Origin: a virus
Taxonomy: Duplodnaviria; Heunggongvirae; Uroviricota; Caudoviricetes
IMG/VR virus record: IMGVR_UViG_3300005253_000053
DNA: 64,000 nt
Strand: one strand, 5' to 3'
Made by a program: the position numbers and the translations under genes. Under the pieces are notes generated by a model, which was not told where the DNA came from, did no database searches, and saw only the letters and a program-made list of their open reading frames with translations. Positions 12,722 through 55,735 of this stretch are shown piece by piece; position 1 is the first letter of the stretch; each line of letters begins with the position of its first letter.

Positions 12722-13153
12722 CTAAGCACCGTACTTCTCTCGTACGGTCTCCGCATACTTGGGCACCACAGCCACCGGGATCTGCTCGAAGCCTGCGTCA
12801 CGCAGCACAGCGAAGCGGTGGCGACCGTTGGTGAATCCGGGCAGGCCGGACTCGTACGGCCCAATCTCGGGCATGATGATCGGCACGTCCGGGTTGTCGT
12901 GGAACCACTGCTGGAACTTCTCATACCTGTTGCTGATCGTAGGCCCGGTGCCGCCGGGGCCTACGTAGTCCGACGACTGCGCCCAGGCCGCGTCGAACTT
13001 GGCCACGTCCACTACGACCTCAACATCGGTACCGGCACGTTCAGGTTTGACGAACAGACGACCGCCAACATTGAACTTCTTGTGAGGAGAACTCTCCGGA
13101 GGCCGCTCCGCTGCCTCGGTCAGGATGTGGCGTATGGCTCGGCGCGCGTCCAT
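12722..13153 (-). CDS. Leader-family protein with ParB/Srx-like domain
   Basis: MDARRAIRHILTEA leader; PIIMP...NGRHRFAVLRDAG..QIPVAV. Confidence 0.75.
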   Translation of the reverse strand: MDARRAIRHILTEAAERPPESSPHKKFNVGGRLFVKPERAGTDVEVVVDVAKFDAAWAQSSDYVGPGGTGPTISNRYEKFQQWFHDNPDVPIIMPEIGPYESGLPGFTNGRHRFAVLRDAGFEQIPVAVVPKYAETVREKYGA

Positions 13154-14145
13154 CAGTCACCTGCCTGACGCTGACGTTCCCGGCGGGCGAACAGCTTAGT
13201 CTTCTCTTTCTCCGCACGGCGTACAGACACAATCTTCACACTGGCATACTTGGTGCGTAGTTGATTGATCGCTTCGTGCCACCTGTCCACGCTTTTCATC
13301 ACGTCGGTCCAGGTGTCGAAGGCGTAGCCTCGCTTACCCAAAAACGGAAACTCCCCTGTCTTCTTCCAGTGCGGGTAAGCATCCATGTACTTCTGCTCAG
13401 GGCTGATCACCCAGATATCACTGGACTCCGGAACTTTAAGGGCACCGGACTTCACTGCCCACTCGACCTCGGCAGAGTACAACGCGCCCATGTTCTTCAC
13501 GCCCTGATGAAACCACTTCTTCCATTCGGAAGCGTCTGGGAAGTCCGGCTGGTCGTAGTCCAGGTGGCTCGTAATTGCTCTTCGGTATGGGTCGTCTGAG
13601 TTGTGCTCTTCATCCAGGAACTGCAAGAACAGCCTGACCATATCGTCGACGCTGTTTATCCTGCGCCCTGATCTCGCGATCCAGTGGCCAAAACTCTGTA
13701 GTGGCCCGCTGTACTGGAATCCGTAGTGTTGCTGCGCCGCCCCGAAATCTCTGAGCGCTTTCAGGACGTAACTTCCCATCTTCGTAAGGATCTGCTGTGG
13801 GTCTCCGGGACTGTTGAACAGACGGCCGAGGGCTTCCATGTTGTTGGCCATGAGGTACGCTGGATCGTCGTACCGGATCATCGATACGTCGTTGAGGGCG
13901 GCCACGTCATCGCCGGGCATGCGGATCAGGAGTTCGCGGAGTTGTCCCCAGTCCATGATCATGTCCTGAATGGACGTGGCCCCGATACCCTTCAGCCCTT
14001 CGAGGCGACCGCTCATCAGATTAGCGAGCATCTCGTCATAGTTATAGGACCCGAAGTCCAGCGCGAGGTAGAAGTATTGAGGCACGGCAGCGTCGGCTGC
14101 CTCGGTCAGCATGATGCGGCGCATGGCTGTGCGGGTGGGGTCCAT
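13153..14145 (-). CDS. Leader-family hypothetical protein
   Basis: MDPTRTAMRRIMLTEA; TGATG coupling. Confidence 0.8.
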   Translation of the reverse strand: MDPTRTAMRRIMLTEAADAAVPQYFYLALDFGSYNYDEMLANLMSGRLEGLKGIGATSIQDMIMDWGQLRELLIRMPGDDVAALNDVSMIRYDDPAYLMANNMEALGRLFNSPGDPQQILTKMGSYVLKALRDFGAAQQHYGFQYSGPLQSFGHWIARSGRRINSVDDMVRLFLQFLDEEHNSDDPYRRAITSHLDYDQPDFPDASEWKKWFHQGVKNMGALYSAEVEWAVKSGALKVPESSDIWVISPEQKYMDAYPHWKKTGEFPFLGKRGYAFDTWTDVMKSVDRWHEAINQLRTKYASVKIVSVRRAEKEKTKLFARRERQRQAGD

Positions 14146-14768
14146 CAGTAGTAGCTCGGGTTGTAGGGCCGGTCCTCGCCGTACTGCTCGACCAGGGCAC
14201 GCAGGCTGTCGTCCAAATGCTCGACGGCCTCGCGATACTTGCTGTTGTTGAGTGGGTAGTACAGGGTGCCTGTCCGCTCGTAGACTACGAGAATCCCCAA
14301 CGTCGCCTCGGCCAGCTTGATGACCACGTCGTAGCAGGCGTCAGCCGCCGCGCGGTACAGCGGGTCCTCCACCTGGAGCGAGCCCTTCATCCTGGTGGCG
14401 CGCTTGCGTAGCCGTGTCGCGGCCTTCTGCATCGACTCCAACGACTCGTCCTTGTACTTGCTGACCTCCAGGTGCTCGCGGTACACGTCGCGTACATACT
14501 CTTCGTTGACGTGGCGGATGATGCCCATCTCTTCGTTGATGTGGCCGACCTCGATGCGGAGCGGGCTGGCCTTCGCATAGACCGCAGAGCCCAGCGAGCC
14601 CAGGATGCAGTGGACCGCCTCGGCGATGCGCTGGAGGCCAATCTCGTACTCGGTGTATGCCTGGAACCAGCCGCCTTCTGGCAGGCCGCCGTAGATCGTG
14701 CCAAGGGCGCAGTGGTCAGGCGCAGCTTCGGTCAGCATCTGGCGTATGACGTGGCGTGTCTGGTCCAT
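14145..14768 (-). CDS. Leader-family hypothetical protein
   Basis: MDQTRHVIRQMLTEA; start trimmed from 14867. Confidence 0.75.
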   Translation of the reverse strand: MDQTRHVIRQMLTEAAPDHCALGTIYGGLPEGGWFQAYTEYEIGLQRIAEAVHCILGSLGSAVYAKASPLRIEVGHINEEMGIIRHVNEEYVRDVYREHLEVSKYKDESLESMQKAATRLRKRATRMKGSLQVEDPLYRAAADACYDVVIKLAEATLGILVVYERTGTLYYPLNNSKYREAVEHLDDSLRALVEQYGEDRPYNPSYY

Positions 14769-14772
14769 CGCG

Positions 14773-16449
14773 TTACTCGAACAGGTGGATCTCTTTCGGA
14801 TTGAACTCAGCTTCAAGGACTCCCTGAAGTTTGCCGGTCCACTTGTACTGACCGGGGTTGACAACACTGAGCCTGCCGGTGTCGCCCTCGAAGTGGCCTT
14901 TCCAACGGCTATCGACAGGAGGGTCCAAGTAGTCCCAGACTAGGTTGTGCGACCACGTGGGCAGTTCACCGTGCTCCTGAAAATACTCTTCCATGGCTTC
15001 GTCGTCTTCCAGGTCGAAGTCAACCAAGTCTTCCATGATCTGTTGATGGCGCTCGACTTGACCGTGATTCAGCACCCATATCTCATGTGTTCTTGGGTCT
15101 GTATAATCCATCTCGAACTCGTCGCCAGGATCGACATGGTACGCCTCGTTGCCATGCCCAAGCTCGAAGTAGAATATCGCTGTACTTTCGTCACCAACCG
15201 TGTGCGGGACGACAGGAGACTCGGTCAGCAGGATACCGCGCATGATCTGCCGCATCGAGTCCGCCACGTGCCGCTCGCGTCCGCGCTGTCCGTAGGCGGG
15301 CTCCCCGAACTCGTCCGGCCACGGCGTGTCTTTGTACGACTGAAACTGTGGATCATCCAAGAACGTGCCAAGGTGTTTCCACCGCAGACGCAGGAGTTCC
15401 TCAGGAAGAAGCTCGTGCGTTCGGCTTTGGTTAAGCGGCCACGGGTTGGTGGGCCTTTCCTCGTCTCCCGGCATGAGGTCGCGTACGCTGCCGGGCTTGA
15501 CGACGAACGTCGGTCCCACGCGCTCGATGTACTGCCTCCAGAACTCGGGGTCCGGCTTGCCGTAGAGTACCGTGTAGCGCTGGTACATGTCCGCGCCGGT
15601 CCTGGGCATCTGTCTCCAGTGCCATGCGTTGTCGTTCTGGACCGCCCAGAGGATCTTGTTGGCTCCCCGAAAGCCCACGTCCTGGTCAAGCCGGATGTTG
15701 CTGGCCCCAAACATCGCGCCTTTTGTATGCTTGGCGATCTGACCGCGCACGGCCCGGAGCAGCTTCTCGTGCGCCTCGCGGACGATTGGCGTCGTCTTGG
15801 CTGTCCCACTCCAAGGATCGGTTGCCTTCTCTTCAATCGCCGCGCGCATCCAAGCTCGGATCATTTCCTTGTATGGGCGGAAGAGTCTCAGGGCGAACTC
15901 GCCGGGCATGCGCCGTTCGAGCTTCTCGTTCAAGAACCCGATGAAGTCCTCGAAGCTCGGCATCATGGCCCCGTCTACCTTGTCGTACCACTCCTTGTCC
16001 CAGTGCGCTGCCCCGGTCGCCTTCCGGTAGCTCTCCCAGTCAAGACTGTCAAGCGCGATCAGGATGGCCTGGGCCGTGTCCGACGAGGGGATGTTCTGGC
16101 CCACTCGGCGCATGAAGAGCGTGAGAGGGATGCTGGCCGAAAGCTGGTCTTCGTCGAACAGCGCGGTCCGCGTCTCGACCTGGAGGCCGAACACGACCGG
16201 CGCGCCGCCGAACTTCTCGGCTGCCTTTCTGGCTTCGCTCTCTGCCGTCATCGCGTTCTGTGTAGCATAGATGCCTCCGTACGAGGCGATGGTGCCGCGC
16301 TCGGGATCGTACTGGCGCTGCTCGGGAGGAATGTCGGCACGCAGGCCCTCCTTGAAGACCAGACGGGCGCGGCCTGAAGACGTTCCGTGATAGTAGATCT
16401 CGCGGGCTTCGGTGAGCATCCTACGTATGGCTTGTCGGGCTGCGTCCAT
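14773..16449 (-). CDS. Leader-family multidomain protein: N-terminal ADP-ribosyltransferase-like domain, internal second leader, shared C-terminal domain
   Basis: MDAARQAIRRMLTEA; YYHGT...GGIYAT...PVVFGLQV...DED; internal MRQIMRGILLTES. Confidence 0.75.
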   Translation of the reverse strand: MDAARQAIRRMLTEAREIYYHGTSSGRARLVFKEGLRADIPPEQRQYDPERGTIASYGGIYATQNAMTAESEARKAAEKFGGAPVVFGLQVETRTALFDEDQLSASIPLTLFMRRVGQNIPSSDTAQAILIALDSLDWESYRKATGAAHWDKEWYDKVDGAMMPSFEDFIGFLNEKLERRMPGEFALRLFRPYKEMIRAWMRAAIEEKATDPWSGTAKTTPIVREAHEKLLRAVRGQIAKHTKGAMFGASNIRLDQDVGFRGANKILWAVQNDNAWHWRQMPRTGADMYQRYTVLYGKPDPEFWRQYIERVGPTFVVKPGSVRDLMPGDEERPTNPWPLNQSRTHELLPEELLRLRWKHLGTFLDDPQFQSYKDTPWPDEFGEPAYGQRGRERHVADSMRQIMRGILLTESPVVPHTVGDESTAIFYFELGHGNEAYHVDPGDEFEMDYTDPRTHEIWVLNHGQVERHQQIMEDLVDFDLEDDEAMEEYFQEHGELPTWSHNLVWDYLDPPVDSRWKGHFEGDTGRLSVVNPGQYKWTGKLQGVLEAEFNPKEIHLFE

Positions 16450-16453: not shown

Positions 16454-18280
16454 CTACTCAAAAACGTGAATTTCAGTCGGGCTGAACTCGGAGCGGAGCA
16501 TTCCGATCAACTGGTTGGTGAGTTTGAAGCGTCCAGGGTTCATGGCGCTGAGCCTTCCGGTGTCACCCTCATAATGACCTTTCCAGTACTGGTCGGGGTT
16601 CGGCCAGAGCATACCATGCGACCACGTGGGCAAGCCTCGTCCCTTCTCTTCTTGTTGATCGACGTAAGCCTGCAACGCTTCGGGATCGCTTAGGTCAACA
16701 CCCTCGTCCTCGATGTTAGGCATGTTAAGCTGATGGTAACGCTGGATTTCGCCGTGCATCAGAACCCAAATCTCATGGGTCAGCGGATCGGTGTACTCCA
16801 TCCCGTCGTCATACGAGGTGTTCCCGTGTCCGAGGTCGAAGTAAAATACGGATGTACCTTCATCGTCGATCTTGTGGAGCGTGACATCGCTGGCGACGAC
16901 AGATTCGGGGAGGCTCTCCTTGTCCATCACCACAAGAGCCGGAAGCGCCTCGACACCCAGGACGTGGAGAGCGTCGTACCGGTGGCTGCCCTCCAGGACG
17001 TACGGGCCTTCTTTGTCGACAACCACGATCAGCGGCACGATCCAACCACTTGCAGCGATCTGCTGCGCCAGTTCGCGGGCCGCCTCGTTGTCATCTCCAG
17101 AAGTCTCGAAAGCAGACAAGGGAACGGCGCGGATGCCGGACAGCACCTCGTAGTCCAGAAGACTGGCCGCGATGGAACTGGTATTTGGAACTTCGTCACC
17201 CACGCGGAGGCCGCTGACCTCGTCACCAGCCCGTGGGTAGAGTTCGTCCTCCTGGGCCTCGGCGAGTATTCGACGTATCACACGTCGGCTTTCGGTCAGC
17301 GCCTCGTCCTGCCCGGCGTAAAACCTGCGGATCGCACCCATGATGCGGCGCGAGTTTTCTCCGGGATCGAACATGTAGGACTTATTCCGTTCGGCCTTCC
17401 AGTAGTAGTCGTTACGCTCGTCGAATTCGCCCAGGCCGTCCTCCATATCGACCGGCATGCCCTCGGCGCTGAAGTTATCGATCCAGCCCTCCAAGGTCCG
17501 GTACTGCGCCGAGGTGGGCTGGACCATCATGTCGAGGCCGCCGTCTTCAGGCATCAGACGGATCGCGCCCAGGCTCATAAACTCCTGCATGCCGCGCGTG
17601 CCGCCCCCGCCGTAACCGATGTTCCGATGGTCAAAGCCGCGCCCGTAGCCGCCGCCCCCGCCCGAGATCATGTCGCCGTCAGGCAGCAAGTAGAACGCAT
17701 CGGTGAAGCTGCTCGTGATCCCGAACCGGCCCTTGGCTTTCTCGAACGGGTCGGCCTCGTCCTCCGCGTCCTCTACGCCGGGCCAGTCCTCCATGGACAG
17801 CGGCATCTCGTTGTCTAGCTTTCGGAGAACCTGGAGCGGGATCTCGCGGTACCTGGACTCCTGGCCGTTCTGCACACTACGGAATACGGAGCGAGCGTAC
17901 TCTCCGGCCGACCAGCCGAACTCGTCACTGATCACTCCAATGATCCGGGCGTGGAAGTCCAGCAGTATCTGGGGTTCGTTCTGGACGAGCGCAGCCATCT
18001 CTCCCGGATTCCAGTTGAGTGCGTCGTAGACCGCGCTCCAGATAGTCCGGTGCTCACCCTCGTCGAACGTAGCCAGCGTGTACTCGGGGAACAGTTCAGT
18101 GACAATCCTCTCGTAGCGCTGCCAGTCGTAGTCCCTGTCCTCCTCACGGTTTACCGCGTCCAGGAAGAACTCCCGCAGGTGATCGTACGTCATGTTCCAG
18201 ACGTGCCGAGGCTGGGTGGGAGCCTCAACGCTGGCCTGCTCGGCCAACACCTGCCGCATCACTAGGCGAGTGGCATCCAT
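16454..18280 (-). CDS. Leader-family multidomain protein: YLLPDG..DHR domain, internal leader, ParB-like domain, shared C-terminal domain
   Basis: MDATRLVMRQVLAEQ; LTESRRVIRRILAEA; IVPLIVV...VLEGSHRYDAL. Confidence 0.75.
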   Translation of the reverse strand: MDATRLVMRQVLAEQASVEAPTQPRHVWNMTYDHLREFFLDAVNREEDRDYDWQRYERIVTELFPEYTLATFDEGEHRTIWSAVYDALNWNPGEMAALVQNEPQILLDFHARIIGVISDEFGWSAGEYARSVFRSVQNGQESRYREIPLQVLRKLDNEMPLSMEDWPGVEDAEDEADPFEKAKGRFGITSSFTDAFYLLPDGDMISGGGGGYGRGFDHRNIGYGGGGTRGMQEFMSLGAIRLMPEDGGLDMMVQPTSAQYRTLEGWIDNFSAEGMPVDMEDGLGEFDERNDYYWKAERNKSYMFDPGENSRRIMGAIRRFYAGQDEALTESRRVIRRILAEAQEDELYPRAGDEVSGLRVGDEVPNTSSIAASLLDYEVLSGIRAVPLSAFETSGDDNEAARELAQQIAASGWIVPLIVVVDKEGPYVLEGSHRYDALHVLGVEALPALVVMDKESLPESVVASDVTLHKIDDEGTSVFYFDLGHGNTSYDDGMEYTDPLTHEIWVLMHGEIQRYHQLNMPNIEDEGVDLSDPEALQAYVDQQEEKGRGLPTWSHGMLWPNPDQYWKGHYEGDTGRLSAMNPGRFKLTNQLIGMLRSEFSPTEIHVFE

Positions 18281-18738
18281 CAGCCCCAGGCTTCCTTGTC
18301 GTGCTGTACCAGCGCGCGGGTCATGTCCTGGGTGAGCGGCTCGACGTTGATGGTGTCTTCCGACGGGACCGCAGCCATCCGCTTGAGCCACTGCCCTTCC
18401 GCCCCGGCCTGCGAAAGCGGGTCTGCCGTGTCGACCTCCCACTCCTCGCCGCTCGGGCTGAACGTGACAATGGAGATGTCGCCGCTCCCCATGGCCTGAT
18501 TCAGATCCCAGTCCATCTTCGAGGCCCAGCGTATGGCGTCGAACTTGTTATCGAACGCGAAGATTTCACCCTGGCCGTAGCGCTCGCCAGTCCCAGACAT
18601 GGCCCAGTTGGAGGGCTGCATCGGGACGAGCCCACGCTTCTGGATATCTGAGACCCGGTCAGTGGGGGTGACGTGGTAGTACTCGACGCCCTGGGCCTCG
18701 GTGAGTATCCGTCTGAGGGCTCTGCGGGTGGGGTCCAT
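18280..18738 (-). CDS. Leader-family protein with ART/Tpt1-like fold start
   Basis: MDPTRRALRRILTEA; YYHVT...IQKRGLVP...IFAF. Confidence 0.7.
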   Translation of the reverse strand: MDPTRRALRRILTEAQGVEYYHVTPTDRVSDIQKRGLVPMQPSNWAMSGTGERYGQGEIFAFDNKFDAIRWASKMDWDLNQAMGSGDISIVTFSPSGEEWEVDTADPLSQAGAEGQWLKRMAAVPSEDTINVEPLTQDMTRALVQHDKEAWG

Positions 18739-26372: not shown

Positions 26373-26789
26373 TTATGGCTGAATCCGGTACGCCGCCCCG
26401 TCCCACTCCCCACCCAGCTTCTCCCAGGCTCTCGCAGCGGCTTTGGTAAGCTGAACGTCGCTCCTGACTGCCAGACCATAGTATCCGGCCAGCGCCTTGA
26501 GCACACGGCCGTACAAACCCTGGCCTCGGTACTCATCATCGATGTTGGCGTTCCGGACGACCAGGAGGCCTTTATCCCAGCCGTGGAACAGGTGACCTTC
26601 GCCGACGCCCTCACCATCGTGAAACACCATCCAGTTGATGGAGTTAATGGCGTAGGGCTCGACACTGACAGTGAACCCGTCTCCGATGCTGAACTCGGCA
26701 GGCTGTTCCTTGCCGATCATGGCCAAGGTATGGTCATCGGCCTCGTGGAGTTCCCGGGTCACAATCTGGTGTACAGGCGGGGCTTCCAT
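26373..26789 (-). CDS. GNAT acetyltransferase-like protein with short ...ELHEA leader
   Basis: NIDDEYRGQGLYGRV (acetyl-CoA motif A), LTKAAARAWEKL. Confidence 0.75.
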   Translation of the reverse strand: MEAPPVHQIVTRELHEADDHTLAMIGKEQPAEFSIGDGFTVSVEPYAINSINWMVFHDGEGVGEGHLFHGWDKGLLVVRNANIDDEYRGQGLYGRVLKALAGYYGLAVRSDVQLTKAAARAWEKLGGEWDGAAYRIQP

Positions 26790-35381: not shown

Positions 35382-36269
35382 ATGTACAAGACCTGCACAA
35401 ACCCGACGTGCCAACAGTCTAACCCACAGTCGGTCTCAAACTTCGCTATCGACCGGCGTGTCAAGACGAAGATATCTTATCAGGCTAGGTGCAGGGACTG
35501 CAAGCGGCAAGCCGCCCGGGAGAACAGGCGGAAACGTGTACAGGAGAGCAAGGGTCTTTATTCTCGATGGAGTACGATGAAAACTCGGTGCTATAACAAG
35601 AACTGCGACGCGTATAAGTACTATGGAGCCCGAGGGATTGAGGTATGTAAAGGCTGGAGAGAATCCTACGGAGCCTTTGAGGCGTGGGCTCTAGCCTCCG
35701 GCTACGACCCGAAGAAGACGCTGGACCGCGTAGACTGCACCGGACCGTACTCCCCAGATAACTGCCGGTGGGCGACGTGCCAGGAGCAGGCACTAAACAC
35801 TCGTAGGACGAATCCTGGAAGACACAAGCCAAAGCCCAGAAAGAGTAAGTCCAGCAGAGCCCCTCTCGAAGTAGTGATGAAAAGACGCTGGTACGATATG
35901 CGAAACAGATGCAGCAATCCGAACAACAGAGCGTACCTCCACTACGGGGGCAGAGGCATTCTCATAGCCTCAGAGTGGCAGGACTTTGCCACCTTCCGCA
36001 TTTGGCTGATCAGCCAGGGGTTCAAGGTAGAACTTACATTGGATCGTGTCGACGTAAACGGATCGTACTCCCCAGAAAACTGTCGGCTTGCAACAAGAAC
36101 ACAGCAAGCCAGAAACACACGACAGGTTAGGTTGTCCAGAGAAAAGGCAGCAGAGATCAGGATACTCTCTGCCCAAGGTGTATCCGGTAGGCAGATCGCC
36201 AAGCGATTTGGAGTTACGCCACCAACCATTTACTCAGTGCTAAACGGAAGACTTTGGCGCACGCCATAG
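35382..36269 (+). CDS. Free-standing homing-endonuclease-like protein with two tandem HNH-type domains and C-terminal HTH
   Basis: Two copies of RW..M..RC.N....Y..YG.RGI...TLDRVD..G.YSP.NCR.AT..Q.A.NTR; lower GC; opposite strand to neighbours. Confidence 0.85.
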   Translation: MYKTCTNPTCQQSNPQSVSNFAIDRRVKTKISYQARCRDCKRQAARENRRKRVQESKGLYSRWSTMKTRCYNKNCDAYKYYGARGIEVCKGWRESYGAFEAWALASGYDPKKTLDRVDCTGPYSPDNCRWATCQEQALNTRRTNPGRHKPKPRKSKSSRAPLEVVMKRRWYDMRNRCSNPNNRAYLHYGGRGILIASEWQDFATFRIWLISQGFKVELTLDRVDVNGSYSPENCRLATRTQQARNTRQVRLSREKAAEIRILSAQGVSGRQIAKRFGVTPPTIYSVLNGRLWRTP

Positions 36270-36713
36270 ACGACACCAACCTTCTGGTCGAATCCAATTC
36301 CTTATTTGTGAACATAAATTCTTCCCGTTCGAGACTTTCATGTACGAAAATTCACAATTCCCGCAGCGCTGAGTCTCGCTGGCCGACTCGTCGGTGTACT
36401 CGGCGTCGGCAGGGTCCATCTTGTACGCGTCGGTGCCGCTGCCCAGGATGTAGTAGAGCAGGGGCTCACGCATCTGGACCTCGGGCGGCAGGCGGGACCA
36501 GTCGCGGATCACCTTCTTGACCGGGGAGGGAGCCTGGGTTCCGGCCTCCGGATAGCCGCGCACCCGGACCGGCTTCTCCGGTGCAGGGTCCGGTTGCGGA
36601 TTGAGGTCGCGGGGCTCGACGGTGCCCTGCGACATCATCTCTTCGTCGTCCTCAGGCGGGAGCGGGGCCTGCTCGTTCAGCAGCTTCCGCATCGCCCTGC
36701 GTGTCTGGTCCAT
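36240..36713 (-). CDS. Leader-family protein with C-terminal HiPIP-like 4-Cys domain
   Basis: MDQTRRAMRKLLNEQ; AEY...CGNC-x13-C-SQIRNW-I-RPE-GWC-RL-W. Confidence 0.7.
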   Translation of the reverse strand: MDQTRRAMRKLLNEQAPLPPEDDEEMMSQGTVEPRDLNPQPDPAPEKPVRVRGYPEAGTQAPSPVKKVIRDWSRLPPEVQMREPLLYYILGSGTDAYKMDPADAEYTDESASETQRCGNCEFSYMKVSNGKNLCSQIRNWIRPEGWCRLWRAPKSSV

Positions 36714-37737: not shown

Positions 37738-38474
37738 AGCTGCGGCTCTCCACCACCGACCACCATACCTGGGGACAGGCCCGCAGGCTGACGATCCTTC
37801 TGCTTGATCTGGTTGGCATTGATGTGTGGGTTCAGCATGTCGTGGATGTCGGCTTCGTAGGTGCTCTGCTTCGGGATGAACTCCTCGATCCATATAAAGT
37901 CTTCGTCAGGCACGCTCTCTTCCGGATCGTATTCGGCTTCCTCCTGAAGGAAGCCGTCGATGCGGTGCTTGGCATCGTCATCGAAACGCCCCATCTGGAA
38001 GTTAGTGCCCTGCACGCGAATCCAGTTCTCCTCCATCATCATGTACTCGCGTGCGTCGCCGCTGTTATCCTCGAACCATTTGACCGCCGTAGGGTTTGCC
38101 CCGGCACTCATCAGGATCACGGCCTCGACGTCAGTCAGCCTACCCGGCTGGATTTCTTGAGCCACCTCGCGGAAATACCGCTCAGCATCCAGAGGGCGGA
38201 TCTCGTTCGCCTCACCCTGCATGCCCAGGTCGTAAGCAAGCTCCGCTAGCTTCTTGGGGTCTTGCTTGATGGCGTCCAGAATTTCTTCCGGGTCGAGTTC
38301 GCCGTACAGGTACTCAAAATTAACACCCAAAGCAGACTCGAATGCAATGGACTCGTGGTTCTGGTCTCCGACGTCCCCGTCTGCGAACGTGGCGTTGCCA
38401 CCCTCCTCGATCCACCACTCCCCGTAGATGTGACCCTCGAACAATATGCGGGTGACTGTGCTGGTGACCGACAT
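37734..38474 (-). CDS. Short-leader protein (MSVTSTVTRILFEG) with WWIEEGG..NH..NWIRV domain
   Basis: TGATG coupling. Confidence 0.7.
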   Translation of the reverse strand: MSVTSTVTRILFEGHIYGEWWIEEGGNATFADGDVGDQNHESIAFESALGVNFEYLYGELDPEEILDAIKQDPKKLAELAYDLGMQGEANEIRPLDAERYFREVAQEIQPGRLTDVEAVILMSAGANPTAVKWFEDNSGDAREYMMMEENWIRVQGTNFQMGRFDDDAKHRIDGFLQEEAEYDPEESVPDEDFIWIEEFIPKQSTYEADIHDMLNPHINANQIKQKDRQPAGLSPGMVVGGGEPQL

Positions 38475-39382
38475 CAGTCCGGTGCCCCCACGAGCACGCC
38501 CAGTCTGCGGCGCAGCAGTTCGATCTCTTCGGGTGTGTCGATGCTGTCCTCAGCACCGAAGCGTCCACGGATGTCACGCAGCGCACTGTACAGCGCCATG
38601 TAGTTGTACCGTTCGAGCAGCTTCTGGATGACGTTGGCGGGCAGGTTGTTCCGGCTGCCGTACTGCGCGACCTCGTCCGGCGTCAGGTTGGCACCGAACG
38701 CATCCTGGCGAGCCTGCTTGATGCTCCGACCCAGGTCAATCAGGTGGCCGACCTCGTTGTCGATCTCACCCAGCTTGGCGACGATGCTGTCAGCCAGGGC
38801 GCTGACCTCTGAGTCGCTGAGCGACTGGTAGATCAGGAAGTCGGCAACGTCCCGCGACAGTTCACCCATGCTCAGGTCGAACTCCCGCGCGGCGATCAGG
38901 AAGCCGGGCATGTAGTGCTCGATGTCGACGGCGATGTCGTACGGACCCTTGACCCAGGCCTCGTTGGTCACGTCGTAGATCCCGTCGGCCCGGTCCTCGT
39001 TGTACTCGCCACGGTGTGGGAAGATCTCGATGGGGTGGTCTGTGCCCTTGAGATCCTCGCCTTCGTACGTCTCGCGGATCAGGTCGAAGATGTCGTACCA
39101 GCTATCGTCATCGATATCCTCGTCGATGATCAGCAGCAGGTCCGCGTCCGACCAGGGAAGCCACTGCTTCGACAGGATGCTGCCCTTGATGTACACGCCG
39201 TAGACCGGAGTGATGTTCTCGTTGACTTCAGCGGCGATGTTCTCAAGCTGGCGCTGGTGCTCCGGCCGCAGGACGAACTCGCCCTCCTCGGCCTCGATGA
39301 ACACGTCCGGGTCCAGGCCCTCGCGGGTCGGGTCGATGGACGCCTCGGTCAGGACTCGGTGCATGGTATGGCGGGGGTCCAC
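38474..39382 (-). CDS. Leader-family Pol-beta-type nucleotidyltransferase
   Basis: MDPRHTMHRVLTEA (GTG); IKGSILSKQWLPWSDADLLL = GS-x9-SD-x-D. Confidence 0.7.
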   Translation of the reverse strand: MDPRHTMHRVLTEASIDPTREGLDPDVFIEAEEGEFVLRPEHQRQLENIAAEVNENITPVYGVYIKGSILSKQWLPWSDADLLLIIDEDIDDDSWYDIFDLIRETYEGEDLKGTDHPIEIFPHRGEYNEDRADGIYDVTNEAWVKGPYDIAVDIEHYMPGFLIAAREFDLSMGELSRDVADFLIYQSLSDSEVSALADSIVAKLGEIDNEVGHLIDLGRSIKQARQDAFGANLTPDEVAQYGSRNNLPANVIQKLLERYNYMALYSALRDIRGRFGAEDSIDTPEEIELLRRRLGVLVGAPD

Positions 39383-39499: not shown

Positions 39500-41107
39500 T
39501 CAGACCCCAGGGCCTCCTGGCTCAGCCTGCTCGACCAGCAGGCCGTAGACGCTATACTGGGCCGGAGTCAGGTTCTCCATGCCCGGGAAGAACTGCTGAC
39601 CCGCCGCTTTCTCGCGGGCCTTCTGCCCCTGGGCCTCGCGCTCGCGGCGCTCCTCCGGACTCTCGATGCTTAGCGTTACTCTCAGCTTTGCCCAGTCGAT
39701 GCCCTCGATGATCTTGTCCAGGTTGATTCCGTAGCTGTCGCCGTCAAACTCCCAGAACACCGATGTGGTTTCCATGGTGTTCTGGAGAAGTTCCCACAGG
39801 TCGCCGCCGTCCATATCGTCGATAGCCTCCTCCCAGTCCTCGCCGGGAGCACCCTCCAGTTCTTCATAAGCCTCGACGTATTTCTTTAGTTGGCTCTTGA
39901 AATCGTCTTCGTAGTAGCCTTCCCAGGCTGAATCGATAAGCTCTACCTCCGCGTTGGCATAGTCAGCGTCGTCGTAGATTTCATAGCTGCCCAAATCCAG
40001 GATGGCTTGCCACATGTCGTCGTCGTCAACGTCGAGGTCGATCCGAACGTATTCGTACTCTCCTCGGTCTGATACGTTCACACCAAAGCTGCTTCCGTAG
40101 TCTTTCATAAAGCCACGGATGTTTCCCAGAACCCTTGGGTCGTTGATGTTGCCGCCGAGCCCAGGCGGATCGACCGTGCCACCTACGTTGATACTGTCGG
40201 TGCTATAGCCCTGGCTATCGCGAAGATCCGCGCCCTCCATCTCAGCGACCTGACGAGCGAGCGCGCTCACGCCGCCACCCGTGACCGCCGTATCCACGTA
40301 CTCTTCGTAGGCTTCCTGCTGATCCTCGTTCCCAGGCTCGGGGGCCATCATCCCGAGGACCTCGTCACGTATCTCTCCGCCAAGTTCGCCCCACGCGATG
40401 TCGTGATCGTTGACGTCGAGGACCTCGCCGTAGTCGTGCGTGTACTGCGCGAAGGGCTTCCACTTTTCTACCTGTCCGCCGGGCTCGTAGACCAGACTGC
40501 TGACGTAGATCACGTACAGCGGGCCACGGGATGTGTAGCTGCCTGCGTGGTGAGATCCGCGCGTGCACCACTCCGTGCCCTTGCCGTGGAACATACAGGC
40601 TTCGGGCGTCTCGACCCGGACGATCTTCCATTCGCCGTCTTTGCTGACGCGGATGACCTTGGAGCCTGGGACGTTGAGCGGGTCGGCCTTCCGGCGCTTC
40701 ATTGAGCGGCGAGAGACCAGCGCCTCAGCGGGGATGTTTTGCATCTCGCTGTGGAGATCCAGCACAGTCGCGTACTTGTTGATGTCGCCTTCGTCGCCCC
40801 GCAGGTAACCGGTCTTCTTGGCCCTGTCGAAAATCGACAGGGCGTTCTGTATCTTAGCGCGGTAGTTTACGTCGGCTGGGGTTGGTACCAGCCTCGGGAT
40901 AGGTGCCTCTCTTCTGACTGCCTCGCTCTTCCACTGCTTCAGAATCCAGGTGCCATACTTGAAGTTTGGAGTCGGGTCAGAGTCCCGCGCCCAAGCCTCG
41001 ATTTGCTCCGGCGTCTGGCCAAGGCGCTGGGCCACCGAATCGATCTGAGCCTGCTGAACCTCGTCCAGTTGCAGTGCGGTCAGGACTGTCTCGAAGATGT
41101 TAATCAC
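39500..41107 (-). CDS. Large hypothetical, paralog of 41104..42222 (HGKGTEWCT motif)
   Basis: DSDPTPNFKYGTWILKQW; TPEACMFHGKGTEWCTR. Confidence 0.75.
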   Translation of the reverse strand: MINIFETVLTALQLDEVQQAQIDSVAQRLGQTPEQIEAWARDSDPTPNFKYGTWILKQWKSEAVRREAPIPRLVPTPADVNYRAKIQNALSIFDRAKKTGYLRGDEGDINKYATVLDLHSEMQNIPAEALVSRRSMKRRKADPLNVPGSKVIRVSKDGEWKIVRVETPEACMFHGKGTEWCTRGSHHAGSYTSRGPLYVIYVSSLVYEPGGQVEKWKPFAQYTHDYGEVLDVNDHDIAWGELGGEIRDEVLGMMAPEPGNEDQQEAYEEYVDTAVTGGGVSALARQVAEMEGADLRDSQGYSTDSINVGGTVDPPGLGGNINDPRVLGNIRGFMKDYGSSFGVNVSDRGEYEYVRIDLDVDDDDMWQAILDLGSYEIYDDADYANAEVELIDSAWEGYYEDDFKSQLKKYVEAYEELEGAPGEDWEEAIDDMDGGDLWELLQNTMETTSVFWEFDGDSYGINLDKIIEGIDWAKLRVTLSIESPEERREREAQGQKAREKAAGQQFFPGMENLTPAQYSVYGLLVEQAEPGGPGV

Positions 41108-42222
41108 GCTACGAGTATCCTGTAGACATCGGCCTTCAAAGACTCACGCGGGAGCGTACCACTGAACGGGAGTGTTTGCTGCTGGTGCTGGGCAGCCCAC
41201 TCGCGGCGGCGCGGGTCAAACGCAAAACGTACAGCCTCCCGGTCTGTCGCCGCCACCGCGTCCTCGATGTCCACGTCAACGTCCCAGTTATCCCCGTACC
41301 AAGTTGTAGTGATTTCGCTGCCCGCCGCGTCGTCGAACAGACCCCAGAGTCGTCCGTTGCTGACCAACTCCTCGATCTCATCTTCGAGGTCCGGGAACTT
41401 CTCGATCAGGCCGTCCCTATACTCGTCCTTAATCCACTCGTCCCAGGCTTCTTCGATGGCACCTTCGGACGCCTTGGCCCACTCCACGTACGTGCTGCTG
41501 TTGCCCGTGGTCTCAGCCGCCTTCTCGAAGAGAACCTGGACTTCGTGCGGAAGCTGGTCGTAGGCCATTTCGTTGTGGTTCGAGTCCTGTACCTCTCGGT
41601 AGTCCGATGTCGCTTGGTAGACAGCTTCGGTACGTTCTGGCGACCACACGTAGTGCACGACGATCAACGGGTTGTCCTCGCTGGCGTAGTGGCAGGCCTG
41701 ATTGCGGGCGCGTGTACACCACGGTGTACCTCGACCATGGAACATTGCCGCGTCCGGCGTGGTGACTATGTAAGCTCGGTACTTCCCTTCCTGAGCCACG
41801 AACTCAGAGCCGGGCACCAACATCGGGTCTGCCTTGCCCTTCCTTAACTGGCGGCGGCTGAGGATCGCGCCCTCGGGAACTTCCTGGAGGGCACCCCAGG
41901 CCTCTCTCCAGCTTTTGTAATCGAAGAGGTTCGGTTTGACCTCCCAATCTCCAGCCGTCTTGAGCGTGACGAGCCGAGCGTGGACGCCAAGCAGTTCGCT
42001 GATGTCGCTACGGATGTTTTCGTCCTGGAGCCTCATCGGGTCCTGATGCGAGAGCCACTGCTTCAGCAGCCACGTGCCATACTTCATGTTGGGCGTGGGG
42101 TCGGCGTCGCGGACGATGGCCTCGACCTCGTCGGGCGAGATCTCGAAGCGCCGCGCGGCCCGGTTCAACTGAGCCTGCTGCACTTCCTGGAGAAGGTCGA
42201 GGGTATCCTGGAAGACATCCAT
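41104..42222 (-). CDS. Hypothetical, paralog of 39500..41107 (HGRGTPWCT motif)
   Basis: DADPTPNMKYGTWLLKQW; TPDAAMFHGRGTPWCTR. Confidence 0.75.
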   Translation of the reverse strand: MDVFQDTLDLLQEVQQAQLNRAARRFEISPDEVEAIVRDADPTPNMKYGTWLLKQWLSHQDPMRLQDENIRSDISELLGVHARLVTLKTAGDWEVKPNLFDYKSWREAWGALQEVPEGAILSRRQLRKGKADPMLVPGSEFVAQEGKYRAYIVTTPDAAMFHGRGTPWCTRARNQACHYASEDNPLIVVHYVWSPERTEAVYQATSDYREVQDSNHNEMAYDQLPHEVQVLFEKAAETTGNSSTYVEWAKASEGAIEEAWDEWIKDEYRDGLIEKFPDLEDEIEELVSNGRLWGLFDDAAGSEITTTWYGDNWDVDVDIEDAVAATDREAVRFAFDPRRREWAAQHQQQTLPFSGTLPRESLKADVYRILVA

Positions 42223-43919: not shown

Positions 43920-44801
43920 CTATTCGTCGCCCAATCCGTTATCCGCTGGGTCCGGATCTGTAGCATCGGGTTCGAGGGCGGGACCTGGGTCGTCCCCGGG
44001 ATCGCTCTCGGGATCGGGGATGACTGGGATCGCTTCTTTCGTCGCGGATGGTTCCGTTTCTTTGTCTTCCCCTCCTGGTACATCATCTTTTTGAAGTCCA
44101 TCGTCGCTGTCTCCCAGGTCTAACGGCGGTGCGCTGCCCAAGTCCAGAGGCTGTACCTCGTGGGTCTCCGGCGGCTCGTCGCCGGGGTGCATGATCTGTG
44201 TGCCCTCCGGACCCTTGCGATCCGGAATGCCGTACTCGTTGGCCTCGGTCTCGTCCATCGGGTGGACCATATCGGTGAACCATTCCTGGATACGGCGCAT
44301 CATCTCAGGTGGCTCGACGGCCTCGAACTCCATTTCGAGGTCCATCATCTTCCGGTTCTTGCGGCCGTCTTTGCCTTCAGCCTGCGGCCCGAACTTCACG
44401 CGGATGGAAGCGCGCTCGACAGTCTTCATACCCTTGTCGTACTGATGCTTCTTGACGCTGGCGGCCTCCAGGCTGACAGACATGCGGACCTTGAGCCGCT
44501 TCAGTTGCAGTGTGGATGGCGGGACCAGAGCGATGAGCGGGATGTCGATGACGCGGCCCGACGGCATCCGGAGCCGCTTCTCGATGGGCTCACCGGACTC
44601 TTCATCGAAGTAGTGGTTGAGGACGTTTACGAAGTGCTGGCCGAGGATGTCCTGAGTGGACTGCGCAACGTGCTGCATGCCACGGGCGAGGTCCGCCAAC
44701 CCGTGTACACCGGGTGGGTTTTCCTCGCCCGCGTCGGCAGCGGCCTTGGAATCGCCGCCGCCATTGTCATCGTCTTTCTTACTCCAGGGCCACCAGGACA
44801 T
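43920..44801 (-). CDS. DUF2589-like protein with acidic Pro-rich tail
   Basis: LADLARGMQHV...IDIPLIALVPPSTLQLKRLKVRM. Confidence 0.65.
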   Translation of the reverse strand: MSWWPWSKKDDDNGGGDSKAAADAGEENPPGVHGLADLARGMQHVAQSTQDILGQHFVNVLNHYFDEESGEPIEKRLRMPSGRVIDIPLIALVPPSTLQLKRLKVRMSVSLEAASVKKHQYDKGMKTVERASIRVKFGPQAEGKDGRKNRKMMDLEMEFEAVEPPEMMRRIQEWFTDMVHPMDETEANEYGIPDRKGPEGTQIMHPGDEPPETHEVQPLDLGSAPPLDLGDSDDGLQKDDVPGGEDKETEPSATKEAIPVIPDPESDPGDDPGPALEPDATDPDPADNGLGDE

Positions 44802-44804: not shown

Positions 44805-45410
44805 CTACTCGGTCACGCCGCCTCCGTCACCAACGGTCAGCTTCGGCGCTTTGTCTTTGTCGATGGGCTGGGTCACATCGCGGATGATCGCCTCGGTCAC
44901 GCGGGCCAGCGCTTCGGGCATCGGCTGCCGGTTGGCCTCGACATGGAAGCTGTACTTGGCGCGGGTGTCTGTCTTTCGAGTCTGCTCCCGGTGATGGCTG
45001 ATGCTGCCGGTCGCCTTCACGCCCCACGGTCCGAAGCCGTACTTGACGCCGACCTCCAGCTTGGAATCGGTTGCCGACTTGGTCTCTTCGACGTTGTTGA
45101 TATCGATCTCGAAGTCCACCTCCACCTTGTCGACGCCGAATGCAGGCATGGGCAGCACGGCGAACAGCGGCATGTCGATTACACGGTTGAGCGTCTTGCC
45201 CGTGGCCTCACCGTCGTCTGAACGCTCAGCCTGCTGGTAACCGAAGCGAACGATCCTCGCGTTGCCGTCCTCGTCCAGGCAGACCTTGTCGAAGAACGTG
45301 GCGAAGGCCGCGCATGCGACCTCGTGCGCCTCGATGGCGGCGACGATGGGCGTGGCCACCATCTTGTGGATAGGTAGCGCGTTGATCTGACCCGAGACGG
45401 GGTTGGCCAT
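44805..45410 (-). CDS. DUF2589-like protein
   Basis: ALPIHKMVATPIVAAIEA...IDMPLFAVLPMPAFGVDKVEVDF...GFGPWGVKATGSIS..REQTRKTDTRAKY. Confidence 0.75.
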   Translation of the reverse strand: MANPVSGQINALPIHKMVATPIVAAIEAHEVACAAFATFFDKVCLDEDGNARIVRFGYQQAERSDDGEATGKTLNRVIDMPLFAVLPMPAFGVDKVEVDFEIDINNVEETKSATDSKLEVGVKYGFGPWGVKATGSISHHREQTRKTDTRAKYSFHVEANRQPMPEALARVTEAIIRDVTQPIDKDKAPKLTVGDGGGVTE

Positions 45411-53279: not shown

Positions 53280-53292
53280 AGTCTACCCCAAC

Positions 53293-53526
53293 CTACGAGT
53301 AGGTCAGCCCCACTCGGTCATCCCAGACTTTGTCAAACTCATCGGTCCCACCGGCCCACTCTATAGAGGTTATAGTTCCAGAGACAGTAATGCGTTGGAT
53401 TTGCCACACACCTGCCGCTTCACCAGACCCCGGTTCAGCTTTACCGATGTACGACGTATTGGAATCAACTTGGTCAATGCGAACGGCATACGGCGTACTG
53501 GATAGGTCAAGAGGAAAAACTGGCAT
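53293..53526 (-). CDS. Small virion-associated protein
   Basis: YIGKAEPG...VWQIQRI...WAGG...F..VWDDR..LTY pattern seen in phage tail regions. Confidence 0.6.
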   Translation of the reverse strand: MPVFPLDLSSTPYAVRIDQVDSNTSYIGKAEPGSGEAAGVWQIQRITVSGTITSIEWAGGTDEFDKVWDDRVGLTYS

Positions 53527-53864
53527 TATGGAGTAACCTCCGCGCCATGAAATGTGAAACTGGCCCCCTGTGCCGTATCAACCTGGACTCCAAGGTTCCC
53601 ACTAAGATTGTTCATCGGCCACCAGACTTCACGTTCAAACGTCTGGCCCTTGCTAAGCTCTGCCTCGAAGTACAACGCTGTATTCTCATCGAATACGGCC
53701 CCATCGTCATCCAAAAAGATGCTAAAAGCTATCTTAGCCCCGTTGACATTGCAGACACTAACTGACTTGATGATGCCAGTCACACCGGCTGCCGGACTAT
53801 AGGCAGACACAGCCGTGATTCCTGCTGGCCGAACTTGGGCTATCTGTTTCTCTTGGAACGTCAT
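53526..53864 (-). CDS. Small beta-sandwich virion-associated protein
   Basis: IIKSVSVCNV...FSIFL; TAATG coupling. Confidence 0.55.
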   Translation of the reverse strand: MTFQEKQIAQVRPAGITAVSAYSPAAGVTGIIKSVSVCNVNGAKIAFSIFLDDDGAVFDENTALYFEAELSKGQTFEREVWWPMNNLSGNLGVQVDTAQGASFTFHGAEVTP

Positions 53865-54265
53865 TACTTCCCACTCAACATAAAGGCGTATCGACGTTCT
53901 TCTTCGAGCCGAACGTCGATCTCAGCCGCTGTCAGTAGTTCGGCCGTCGTTGTTCCCGTGTCGTCTACTCTAACTCCGGCCCCCGCGAGTTCTCCAGACG
54001 CTGTTTGTGTGACGAGATCCCCGACCACGACCGCCGAAAGGCGCTGGACGACGTCGAGGTTTGCCCTGGACGTCGGAACATCAGCTACGTCTGACAGGTT
54101 ATTAGCAATAATTAGGGCACCGAGAGCGCCAGCGATGGCGTCCAGGAGGTCCTGATTCTGAGATGCGAACCCGTCACGGATAGCCTGCGCCCGGACGCCG
54201 TTCTTGACTCCGACCGGAATGCCGTTCAAGATGTCGTTGATCGTGAGGTCGTCGCGGTCAGCCAT
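53864..54265 (-). CDS. Tail-fibre-associated protein
   Basis: IANNLSDVADVPTSRANLDV fibre-type motif. Confidence 0.55.
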   Translation of the reverse strand: MADRDDLTINDILNGIPVGVKNGVRAQAIRDGFASQNQDLLDAIAGALGALIIANNLSDVADVPTSRANLDVVQRLSAVVVGDLVTQTASGELAGAGVRVDDTGTTTAELLTAAEIDVRLEEERRYAFMLSGK

Positions 54266-54792
54266 CAGTTGAAGTCCTCGTCAAACTCAAAGGAAAACTC
54301 AGAGAATGTCGGGTCAGGAACAATGTCCTTGACATTCCAGTTAGAGTCTACCTGCGGGATGATCGGAGGCTCTCCCGCAAAGAAGACCAAGTTGTTCAAC
54401 GGTACCTCGCGCGTGCTCCCGTCAGCATCCAAAGTTACCACAAAGCGGTCGGGTACACCAAGACTGGCCACGATGATGCCACTCTGCCGGGCTGCCCGTA
54501 CGTGGACGTCAACGAGAACCGGGACGCCGGGCTGGTAAAGGACACCATTGTTACCGGCCTCCTGGAAATGCAGGTCGTCGGCCTCAACGATCTCCTCCCC
54601 GCCATCCTGGCGCAGGACGCGAACCGTGTTGATCCCTTTACTCAGTACGACGGCCTGGGTGAAGTCGCGCAGATCCGGGAAGAGCGTGAGAACCTGATCG
54701 CCGATGATGTACTCCGGCGTACCCACAGACTGAGGCCTGCGAGCCAACGGACCAGACCGAAAGGTGAACTTGCGTTCCCTACGATCCGCCAT
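54265..54792 (-). CDS. Tandem SH3/Tudor-like barrel protein (family member 3)
   Basis: GDQVLTL...VRVLRQDG; FVVTLDADG; IIPQVDSNWNV. Confidence 0.6.
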   Translation of the reverse strand: MADRRERKFTFRSGPLARRPQSVGTPEYIIGDQVLTLFPDLRDFTQAVVLSKGINTVRVLRQDGGEEIVEADDLHFQEAGNNGVLYQPGVPVLVDVHVRAARQSGIIVASLGVPDRFVVTLDADGSTREVPLNNLVFFAGEPPIIPQVDSNWNVKDIVPDPTFSEFSFEFDEDFN

Positions 54793-54795
54793 GGC

Positions 54796-55377
54796 TTACT
54801 CCATCAGCGATTCGAGGACGGTCTCGCTTACGGTGGGCTCTTGCTGTGCGGGGCGGATGGCGAAGGTGATGTGGAAGTCCTGCGCCTTGCCTTCCTCGGA
54901 CTGAGGCAGCTTCTTGAGGCCGAGGCTGCGGCGAAGCTGTTCAAGCTGTGGGCTGTCAACCTGGACGAACCAGACGCGGCTCATCTCGTCCCAGCCTGCC
55001 GGATCGAGATCGATCACGTCGCCCAGGGTGTACTCGTAGAAGCCCGCACCGACCTTGTCCTTCCACTCATCGCCGTGCTTGTCGCGAAGCTGCTTGGCCT
55101 CGTCGTTCTTCACGACGGTGATATGCGGATTGTCGAAGCTGGGGATGACATCGTCGACCAGTTTGCCCTGCGCCTTCAAGGTGGCGAAGACCATGGCCGG
55201 GATCACGTCGTCGACTTCGAGGCAAACCCAGGGCTTGTCCGGATCAGTGTCTTCCGGCTTGAGCTTGCCCATGAAGGTGAGGGGGCGGCGGTTGTGCGCG
55301 CCGTCGATCTCGTCCAGGAACTGGAGGTCGAGCCAGTCAGCCTGCATACAGGTCGCCGTAGCCTCGAAGAGCCCCAC
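54796..55377 (-). CDS. 2H phosphoesterase (two HxT motifs; Acb1/LigT-like)
   Basis: NPHITVV and DFHITFA; GTG start VGLFEA. Confidence 0.8.
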   Translation of the reverse strand: MGLFEATATCMQADWLDLQFLDEIDGAHNRRPLTFMGKLKPEDTDPDKPWVCLEVDDVIPAMVFATLKAQGKLVDDVIPSFDNPHITVVKNDEAKQLRDKHGDEWKDKVGAGFYEYTLGDVIDLDPAGWDEMSRVWFVQVDSPQLEQLRRSLGLKKLPQSEEGKAQDFHITFAIRPAQQEPTVSETVLESLME

Positions 55378-55735
55378 CTATACGTTCTCGCGCATCCCGC
55401 TCAGACGAGGCCTCGATAAATACATCGATCCAGAAGTCCCCGTGGCCGAGTCCGCCTCCTGACGCGGTGCCAGGGTGGGGACCATCGACCTCGAACTCGC
55501 GGCCCGTGCCTGAGTACCGTGGCCTGCCCAAGCGCTCCAAGTGCTGAGCAACGTCCTTGGCCAGTTCCTCCGGAGTCTCCCAGTCGCCCTCCAACTCTCC
55601 CGCGTAGCCAGCGCTGATGACGACGCGAAGCGCCCACGTGGTCGGCCCCACGTCGCGGATGTAAATGTCGCCTGGAGGCGCTTCCACCCTGGCCTCAGAA
55701 AGCACTGTCCGGATGGCTTGGCGTGCGGTGTCCAT
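55378..55735 (-). CDS. Leader-family hypothetical protein
   Basis: MDTARQAIRTVLSEA. Confidence 0.7.

Follow-up and report, generated by a model that had tools for sequence, protein, structure and literature searches.

Leader-bearing genes in the window

The stretch of DNA analysed here (64,000 nt, hereafter the window) corresponds to bases 51,879-115,878 of the 152,928-bp IMG/VR record IMGVR_UViG_3300005253_000053 (linear, 59.5% G+C, CheckV 65% complete). The same phage was found also on a 224,854-bp contig of a protein collection and on a 40-kb ENA marine-sediment contig that reaches beyond the start of the record. It is an uncultured, distantly T4-like giant phage originating from marine-sediment metagenomes, and 12 kb of the window had no megablast match among cultured phages. 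Nine genes of the window, all on the minus strand, encode dissimilar proteins behind a common N-terminal leader of 14 residues or close to it. An earlier, sequence-only reading had placed the starts of these genes at 13153, 14145, 14768, 16449, 18280, 18738, 36713, 39382 and 55735 and had taken the leader for a T4-like capsid-targeting and protease-maturation signal on a set of injected enzymes. All nine starts indeed encode the leaders quoted there. The genes, referred to below as tagged, are as follows, with a slash between the leader and the residue after it.

12722-13153, minus strand: tagged gene 1, 143 amino acids (aa), leader MDARRAIRHILTE/A, a 13-residue variant; ParB/sulfiredoxin-like GRHRxA motif in the body
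13153-14145, minus strand: tagged gene 2, 330 aa, leader MDPTRTAMRRIMLTE/A with one extra residue
14145-14768, minus strand: tagged gene 3, 207 aa, leader MDQTRHVIRQMLTE/A; helical body
14773-16449, minus strand: tagged gene 4, 558 aa, leader MDAARQAIRRMLTE/A; N-terminal YYHGT motif
16454-18280, minus strand: tagged gene 5, 608 aa, leader MDATRLVMRQVLAE/Q
17255-17299, minus strand: internal leader copy in gene 5, LTESRRVIRRILAE/A, in-frame and without Met-Asp
18280-18738, minus strand: tagged gene 6, 152 aa, leader MDPTRRALRRILTE/A; body modelled as an ADP-ribosyltransferase (ART) fold; first gene of a six-gene cassette
36240-36713, minus strand: tagged gene 7, 157 aa, leader MDQTRRAMRKLLNE/Q; Pro/Glu-rich linker and HiPIP-like four-Cys module
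38474-39382, minus strand: tagged gene 8, 302 aa, GTG start, leader (M)DPRHTMHRVLTE/A, a 13-residue variant
55337-55735, minus strand: tagged gene 9, 132 aa, leader MDTARQAIRTVLSE/A; operon head

A profile of the leader, run against the six-frame translation of the whole record, returned 18 N-terminal copies (16.6-33.8 bits) and, at 11.3 bits, one in-frame internal copy, LTESRRVIRRILAEA (window 17299-17255); nothing unrelated scored above 6.5 bits. The copy at 39382 was missed by this gapless profile, being a 13-residue variant. The record holds 19 tagged genes in total, nine of them inside the window and all on the minus strand, grouped in clusters of 1, 4, 3, 2 and 6 genes plus three singletons. 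The motif scan that had been proposed along with the sequence-only reading was thereby carried out for the record, and protein searches placed the leader on two related contigs. No copy was seen on the small plus-strand genes, in line with the claim that small early-type genes lack the leader.

The consensus of the leader is M1 D2 x T4 R5 x A7 I8 R9 x h11 L12 x E14 A15 (h, hydrophobic; x, any residue). M1, D2, R5, L12 and E14 are invariant over the 19 copies; position 11 is hydrophobic in 19/19, R9 is found in 18/19, Ala or Val at position 7 in 18/19 and A15 in 14/19. Codons at the conserved residues vary synonymously (CGC, CGA, CGT, CGG and AGA for Arg; CTC, CTG, CTT and TTG for Leu; GAG and GAA for Glu), so that selection acts on the peptide rather than on its DNA or RNA. 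Without the leader, similarity is left in only 4 of the 171 protein pairs. The tagged proteins, products of separate genes, span 111-608 aa. The leader itself has the make-up of an amphipathic, Arg-bearing helix, with M1, D2, R5 and R9 and a hydrophobic face of A7, I8, h11 and L12, and its helical hydrophobic moment is 0.53 vs. 0.32 for shuffled leaders. The 20 residues following it are enriched in Ala, Pro and Asp; a short linker, often rich in these residues, joins the leader to each body.

The further class of looser N-termini ending in h-x-E, which had been named alongside the nine leaders, was not supported. The pattern hydrophobic-hydrophobic-x-E within residues 3-25 was found in 10.2% of untagged genes vs. 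9.6% of internal windows, as expected by chance, and [LIM]-x-E over the same N-terminal residues in 25.8% vs. 25.5%. Degenerate DNA patterns for the leader had no match in a viral contig collection, and a metagenome scan with such patterns gave 10 single matches, which were rejected as chance-like (off the starts of open reading frames, one per contig); one of the 10, MDDTRQAIRRLLCE on contig L021, lies inside a longer frame. These null scans are explained by the collections, which do not include the relatives found later by protein search. A word-index protein search limited to residues 1-40 of one tagged protein returned the query itself only.

Bodies of the tagged proteins and leaders in relatives

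The body of the 152-aa product of gene 6 was confirmed, at the level of its structural model, as an ADP-ribosyltransferase fold. AlphaFold2, given a 55-sequence alignment, modelled the protein with a predicted local distance difference test (pLDDT) score of 89.4. The leader is a helix of its own (residues 3-15, pLDDT ~75); a 4-residue linker comes next, and the body starts from residue 20. In a Foldseek search of the PDB the top matches of the model were only members of the ART superfamily (Tpt1/KptA first, followed by DarT, Arr and toxin ARTs), with a best E of 3.7e-4, a probability of 1.0 at the top of the list and template modelling (TM) scores of 0.4-0.5; the Atlas leads agree in pointing to ART families. 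H22, the N-terminal strand His of the ART fold, is invariant in the 55 homologues. An exhaustive profile search with the same protein gave 394 homologues, in which homology begins at residue ~13-20, just past the leader. Many of these homologues are domains, ~50% identical, within proteins of 1.2-4.3 thousand aa, and others make up a small protein on their own. In the four giant and two mid-size homologues searched, Pfam recognised no domain, so the link to polyvalent proteins is one of architecture only.

The 608-aa product of gene 5 is built in the order leader, N-domain, internal leader copy, ParB_N-like module (Pfam 2.2e-4, residues 397-451, a weak match) and a C-terminal module shared with gene 4 (50% identity over 158 aa, the C-terminal ~150 aa of the gene 4 protein). 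The first codon of the internal copy is CTG, so it is not a start, and the 608-aa protein would be a two-part polyprotein if this copy is cut. The N-terminus of the gene 4 protein was tried as an ART, and hhalign gave a match that was not significant (E 0.011, probability 3.8%), which leaves this label unproven. Gene 1 is the last gene of the six-gene cassette, and its start overlaps the upstream stop (cTGATG). The gene 2 body had no recognised family in Pfam or PHROGs; a leader variant like that of gene 2, MDATRKAMRHIMLGE, is found in the gene next to the gene 3 orthologue on the JGI contig L030. The gene 3 body has a conserved core, C-P-[LI]...YGGLP...AEAVHCILGSLG, and gave no usable family in the Atlas search.

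Gene 7 carries a HIPIP match above the 22-bit cut-off (Pfam 2.4e-5, 25 bits). Its C-terminal HiPIP-like four-Cys module (CGNCE...C...GWCxLW) recurs N-terminally in a 555-aa protein, L013:3000-4667 on the plus strand, which lies within the head operon and begins MPRLEE/V. The recurrence suggests that a metal or iron-sulfur module is present inside the virion. The gene 8 body is nucleotidyltransferase-like (NTP_transf_2 6.2e-4, 20.5 bits vs. a 21-bit cut-off), and a GGAAGG ribosome-binding site precedes the gene. The gene 9 body had no recognised family. Pfam and PHROGs had no useful match for most of the tagged bodies, the large proteins of the window (835, 579, 535 and 372 aa) or the surroundings of gene 9, and as a consequence co-transcription of gene 9 with virion genes is not established. 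The enzyme set that the sequence-only reading had listed thus stood in part: the ART fold of gene 6 and the HIPIP match hold, and the ParB-like and nucleotidyltransferase labels do fall on tagged genes, yet with the weak scores given above, whereas the 2H phosphoesterase and a weak GNAT match in the window (26373-26789, 4e-3) are on untagged genes. A tagged GNAT protein is encoded outside the window (record 16890-17327, Pfam 1.3e-11).

Relatives of the phage carry the same leader. The 8.8-kb NCBI contig L026 has same-leader orthologues of gene 6 (79% identity) and gene 3 (84% identity), two further tagged genes and a conserved counterpart of the internal copy, LTECRHVIRRMLTER. Contig L030 has a gene 3 orthologue of 57-58% identity with the leader MDTTRQVIRRMLTE/T, its start being corrected to MDTTRQVIRRMLTE from a gene call that had begun at an internal Met. 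Across these relatives the conserved leader positions are unchanged and the x positions vary. In L026 the ParB-like module forms a tagged gene of its own behind the ART gene, whereas here it lies behind the internal leader of the 608-aa protein; the big L026 protein consists of N-domain, internal leader and C-module, with no ParB-like module in between (L026:3-1055 and 5422-5817 vs. window 16454-18280). As modules are rearranged between the relatives, the tag marks the boundaries of cargo-module exchange.

Such exchange, together with the C-terminal modules that a few tagged proteins share, is what would be expected if the leader were a functionless relic spread by recombination or duplication among paralogous cassettes, with the leader DNA acting mainly as a recombination joint. 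We find this barely credible, since five of the positions never change and another four hardly do over the 19 copies, although synonymous change is free, and the same positions are kept in orthologues with bodies diverged to 57% identity.

Homologues of two of the tagged bodies in other phages begin with other short leaders. Among ART-body homologues with an N-terminal extension of 9-32 aa, h-x-E was present in 20/28 extensions vs. 16/60 control segments, taken upstream of internal domain copies (Fisher p 1.4e-4). One extension reads MKTFKQFLSE/A, and a translationally coupled neighbour starts with MKTFKQFILE/Q; both closely resemble the tags of T4 internal proteins. Further leaders on ART homologues are MKFKQFLLE/T, MKFKEYLKE/A, MRSKEFIVE/S and MRAKQFLCE/S. 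Homologues of the 207-aa gene 3 body have MNFKDWLIQE/A, ..AHLVE/A, ..KLVLE/G, ..RIIAE/A and ..DFFE/A before the conserved core. Judged by these N-termini, homologous cargo bodies appear to carry lineage-specific leaders that all end in h-x-E. On the myovirus-like, 118-kb contig L033 (JGI Ga0307031_1000051), coupled consecutive genes at 8650-10890 have ..RRRLNE/S, ..AHLVE/A and ..RRALQE/A, and these may represent a looser Arg-rich leader family related to the present one.

Head genes, promoter-like boxes and the probable role of the leader

The phage has head genes of T4 type. Its portal protein is T4 gp20-like (Portal_T4 3.4e-41) and adjoins the large terminase subunit. Pfam models of T4 gp21 and gp23 had no match inside the 153-kb record, and the head operon was reached by following an exact protein onto the longer sediment contig. 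There, a gp23-like capsid protein is encoded (Gp23 6.5e-43), and immediately upstream of its gene lies that of an 868-aa protein (L013:10001-12607), the first ~200 residues of which are T4 gp21-like (BLASTP vs. T4 gp21, 7e-6; Peptidase_S77, PF03420, over residues 29-196, E 1.5e-4, 21.8 bits). Both catalytic residues are aligned, His in GELNH85P of T4 gp21 with GHIEHP and Ser in GVSS140RG with GASSRA. The N-terminus MRTLLE/D aligns with MNEPQLLIE of T4 gp21 (LLIE), where the site LIE-9 fits gp21's own cleavage logo (PMC9026906). The remainder of the 868-aa protein is helical or of low complexity, with long acidic and basic runs and a highly charged C-terminal part. Per 100 aa, [LIM]-x-E occurs 3.2 times in this protein and 4.4 times over residues 1-90 of the capsid protein vs. 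1.4 times in the proteome, and the maturation site FLTE/A of T4 gp23 aligns with QMDE/A of the phage capsid protein. One complex prediction, of residues 1-330 and 515-700 of the 868-aa protein with the 152-aa tagged protein, was run without controls and scored 0.00, which counts neither for nor against binding. A protein related to the gp21-like domain is encoded near the end of the window.

62201-62626, minus strand: degenerate gp21-like protease paralogue, 141 aa, NRNGRVY motif kept, catalytic His and Ser absent

This protein is a diverged and probably inactive paralogue of the protease, and recalls the one that is reported for SPN3US (PMC5694885). Its gene overlaps the start region of an AAA-type ATPase gene (62517-63965).

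Considering these results together, we find it likely that the 14-residue leader is a lineage-specific capsid targeting sequence (CTS) and at the same time the propeptide of a gp21-type prohead protease. The T4-like proposal of the sequence-only reading is in this respect supported by the T4-type head genes, the gp21-type site, the h-x-E leaders on homologues in other phages and the retention of the tag in two related contigs. The end of the tag, h-L-[TNS]-E/A, fits gp21-type cutting after Glu, and L-T-E/A is identical to the T4 gp23 site FLTE/A. Conservation of the leader reaches 10 residues upstream of the cutting motif, which fits a binding epitope and not merely a protease site, and we count in favor of this role also the detached leader helix of the AlphaFold2 model, with its confidence below that of the body.

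During head assembly, the leader helix would bind a component of the prohead core, for which the 868-aa protease-scaffold protein is the likely partner, and binding would carry the tagged proteins inside the gp23-like capsid shell. The gp21-like serine protease would then cut after E14 (P4 hydrophobic, P3 Leu, P1 Glu, P1' usually Ala) and free the mature enzymes inside the head, with the 608-aa protein being cut at the internal copy as well, into two pieces. The predicted cargo, comprising the ART-fold enzyme, ParB/sulfiredoxin-like and nucleotidyltransferase-like proteins, GNAT, the HiPIP-like module and others, would exit with the DNA at infection and act on the host before phage gene expression. 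Since the tag is a portable unit, modules are gained, lost, fused and split at it between related phages, as the comparison of these contigs shows.

A promoter-like class, here called P2, of the form G[GC]TATACT-N7-start, lies before tagged operon heads.

55743-55750, minus strand: P2 box GCTATACT, 7 nt before the ATG of gene 9

Other members are at record positions 17342, 39716, 48041 and 30376, and 4 of the 9 occurrences of the P2 8-mer in the record are exactly 7 nt before a tagged start. A spacing of 7 nt implies leaderless or near-leaderless mRNA. The six-gene cassette is preceded by TTGACT-17-TAAGAT. P2-like boxes precede also the window starts 42222 (GGTATAAC) and 45962 (GGTACTCT). A second class, P1, is a highly conserved ~45-nt motif, ttTnCCTGnCCAAATAGCC-N6-ATCCGATAAYA, with about 35 copies in the record on both strands. 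It is usually 5-6 nt upstream of ATG, which again implies leaderless mRNAs, stands before small genes and others and never before a tagged gene; P1 may be a phage-specific promoter class. Its copies in the window are:

4684, minus strand: P1 copy
4735, plus strand: P1 copy
7855, plus strand: P1 copy
24172, plus strand: P1 copy
26862, plus strand: P1 copy
30787, plus strand: P1 copy
32994, plus strand: P1 copy
43817, minus strand: P1 copy
47123, minus strand: P1 copy
60861, minus strand: P1 copy

With a -10-like box 7 nt before the start of several tagged operon heads, the leader might be thought to serve expression or turnover, either as a downstream-box-like enhancer on leaderless mRNAs or as an N-terminal degron or stabiliser. 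We regard this as very unlikely: most tagged genes are operon-internal and coupled, with a start that overlaps the preceding stop (cTGATG), some 35 other genes of leaderless appearance, those of class P1, are untagged, the synonymous variation means that the peptide is conserved and not the RNA, and the in-frame internal copy is conserved in a relative.

A further alternative is that the leader docks a partner or compartment other than the capsid, such as a replication/transcription hub, a membrane or a shell, and that L-x-E/A is coincidental. Short peptides shared by unrelated proteins are the mode of hub-binding motifs and of encapsulin cargo-loading peptides, an amphipathic helix with two Arg residues (R5 invariant, R9 in 18/19) suits such docking, and the sigma-70-like boxes are compatible with non-late expression. 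Still, docking elsewhere does not account for the constant ending of the tag in the motif cut by T4-type proteases such as the phage's own, for the T4-like or other h-x-E leaders on homologous bodies in other phages, or for the conservation of an internal copy at a module boundary, and we consider it unlikely.

Several observations weigh against capsid targeting with proteolytic maturation, the role that we prefer. As h-x-E is common by chance, the match to the cleavage site is weak when taken alone, and the argument is one of combination. Apart from h-x-E/A, the leader does not resemble the T4 CTS in sequence. The Peptidase_S77 match of the 868-aa protein is under the curated cut-off (21.8 vs. 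27 bits), and no separate gp22-like scaffold gene was recognised. The boxes before the tagged operons look like ordinary sigma-70-type promoters and could mean early rather than late expression, while gp23 is preceded by a loosely similar box only, GCTACACT. Finally, the phage is uncultured and is known here from sequence alone. As far as the sequences can tell, the leader is an analogue or a highly diverged version of the T4 CTS, not its sequence homologue.

A broader proposal, which we put forward tentatively and think rather doubtful, is that of an interchangeable capsid zip-code system. Each T4-like phage would have its own short h-x-E leader and draw on an effector pool shared with giant proteins; the leader DNA would be the swap joint and the internal copies would make polyprotein cargo, to be split by the head protease once loaded. 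Injected proteins act ahead of phage gene expression and are the first line of host takeover and counter-defence, known experimentally for few phages. If the targeting role of the leader is true, a lineage-specific address tag would let the injected cargo of an uncultured phage be listed from its sequence, and here the list runs to at least 19 proteins, about five times as many as in T4. If the zip-code proposal is true too, the sequence of an uncultured T4-like phage would directly show which proteins it injects. The same bodies under different tags and in giant proteins point to a shared effector pool with alternative delivery routes, and the 14-residue tag with its matching protease is a candidate second, orthogonal packaging system for the engineering of phage capsids.

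Directly downstream of gene 9, in the operon that it heads, lies the untagged phosphoesterase gene mentioned above.

54796-55377, minus strand: untagged 2H-SAK phosphoesterase (PF22547, 2e-9), beginning MGLFE/A

We treat it as context only, outside the predicted cargo set. The adjacent genes 39500-41107 and 41104-42222 (both minus strand) encode paralogues of 38% identity over 250 aa, and their shared N-terminus, ...L(Q)LDE/LLQE-VQQAQ (the slash here separating the two variants), is due to this paralogy and not to a tag. Two adjoining DUF2589 proteins are encoded at 43920-44801 (minus strand, Pfam 2e-10) and 44805-45410 (minus strand, 2.7e-22), downstream of a P1-driven 363-aa gene.

Comparison with known packaging and delivery systems

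The closest known system is that of the T4 internal proteins, which share a 10-residue CTS, Alt carrying a short propeptide (PMC9026906, PMC3012670, PMC5694885). The T4 CTS confers affinity for the prohead core, gp21 cuts it off, and a foreign protein that is fused to it becomes packaged and injected (PMC9026906, PMC3012670, PMC5694885). Residues 4 and 7 of the CTS serve targeting, residues 8 and 10 processing, and reviewers have proposed that by means of the CTS T4-like phages can package varied proteins (PMC9026906). In the T4 sequences, ipII and ipIII begin MKTYQEFIAE/A and ipI begins MKTFKEF. The present leader is alike in being a short N-terminal peptide on unrelated proteins that ends in hydrophobic-x-Glu followed by Ala, and the phage is alike in having gp20, gp21 and gp23 homologues and variable, tandem, translationally coupled cassettes; the ART-fold cargo here parallels the ADP-ribosyltransferase Alt (PMC9026906). 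It differs from T4 in having a leader of 14 residues instead of 10, with Asp2 and Arg5 invariant and Arg9 in 18/19, and at least 19 tagged proteins instead of about 4. Many of the tagged proteins are of enzyme size, up to 608 aa, and one has a second, internal copy of the leader; targeting and cleavage are here predicted from sequence.

In the giant phages phiKZ, 201phi2-1 and SPN3US, head and ejection propeptides are cut by gp21-related proteases after (S/A/G)-x-E, and the paralogues gp53 and gp54 have an identical 15-residue N-terminus (PMC5694885, PMC7411985). Common to these phages and, as predicted, to the present one are many head-internal proteins processed after Glu by a diverged gp21-type protease. 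In contrast, the propeptides of the giant phages are mostly long (>100 residues) and protein-specific, with Ala, Ser or Gly instead of Leu at P3, and no single short tag is common to unrelated proteins.

Polyvalent proteins of phages and conjugative elements, reportedly described by Iyer et al. in 2017 (Pfam ART-PolyVal, MPTase-PolyVal), offer a second parallel, with a repertoire of ART, ParB-like and nucleotidyltransferase domains thought to enter with the DNA. Here, in contrast, the proteins are encoded by separate genes with their own address tags and not as one giant fusion. The term 'distributed polyvalent protein', which the sequence-only reading had used for the tagged set, is partly supported: the ART-fold domain is indeed ~50% identical to domains in proteins of 1.2-4.3 thousand aa, whereas the effectors here are separate genes.

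Encapsulin cargo-loading peptides mostly sit at the C-terminus, bind directly to the shell and stay on the cargo. They are similar to the leader in that a short conserved terminal peptide sends diverse enzymes into an HK97-fold shell, but have no sequence relationship to it. Against these systems, the principle of a short packaging peptide on internal proteins is known from T4. The present phage adds a tag of distinct sequence, a cargo set that is much larger and rich in enzymes, an internal copy of the tag and evidence from sequence comparisons that cargo bodies move between tags and giant proteins.

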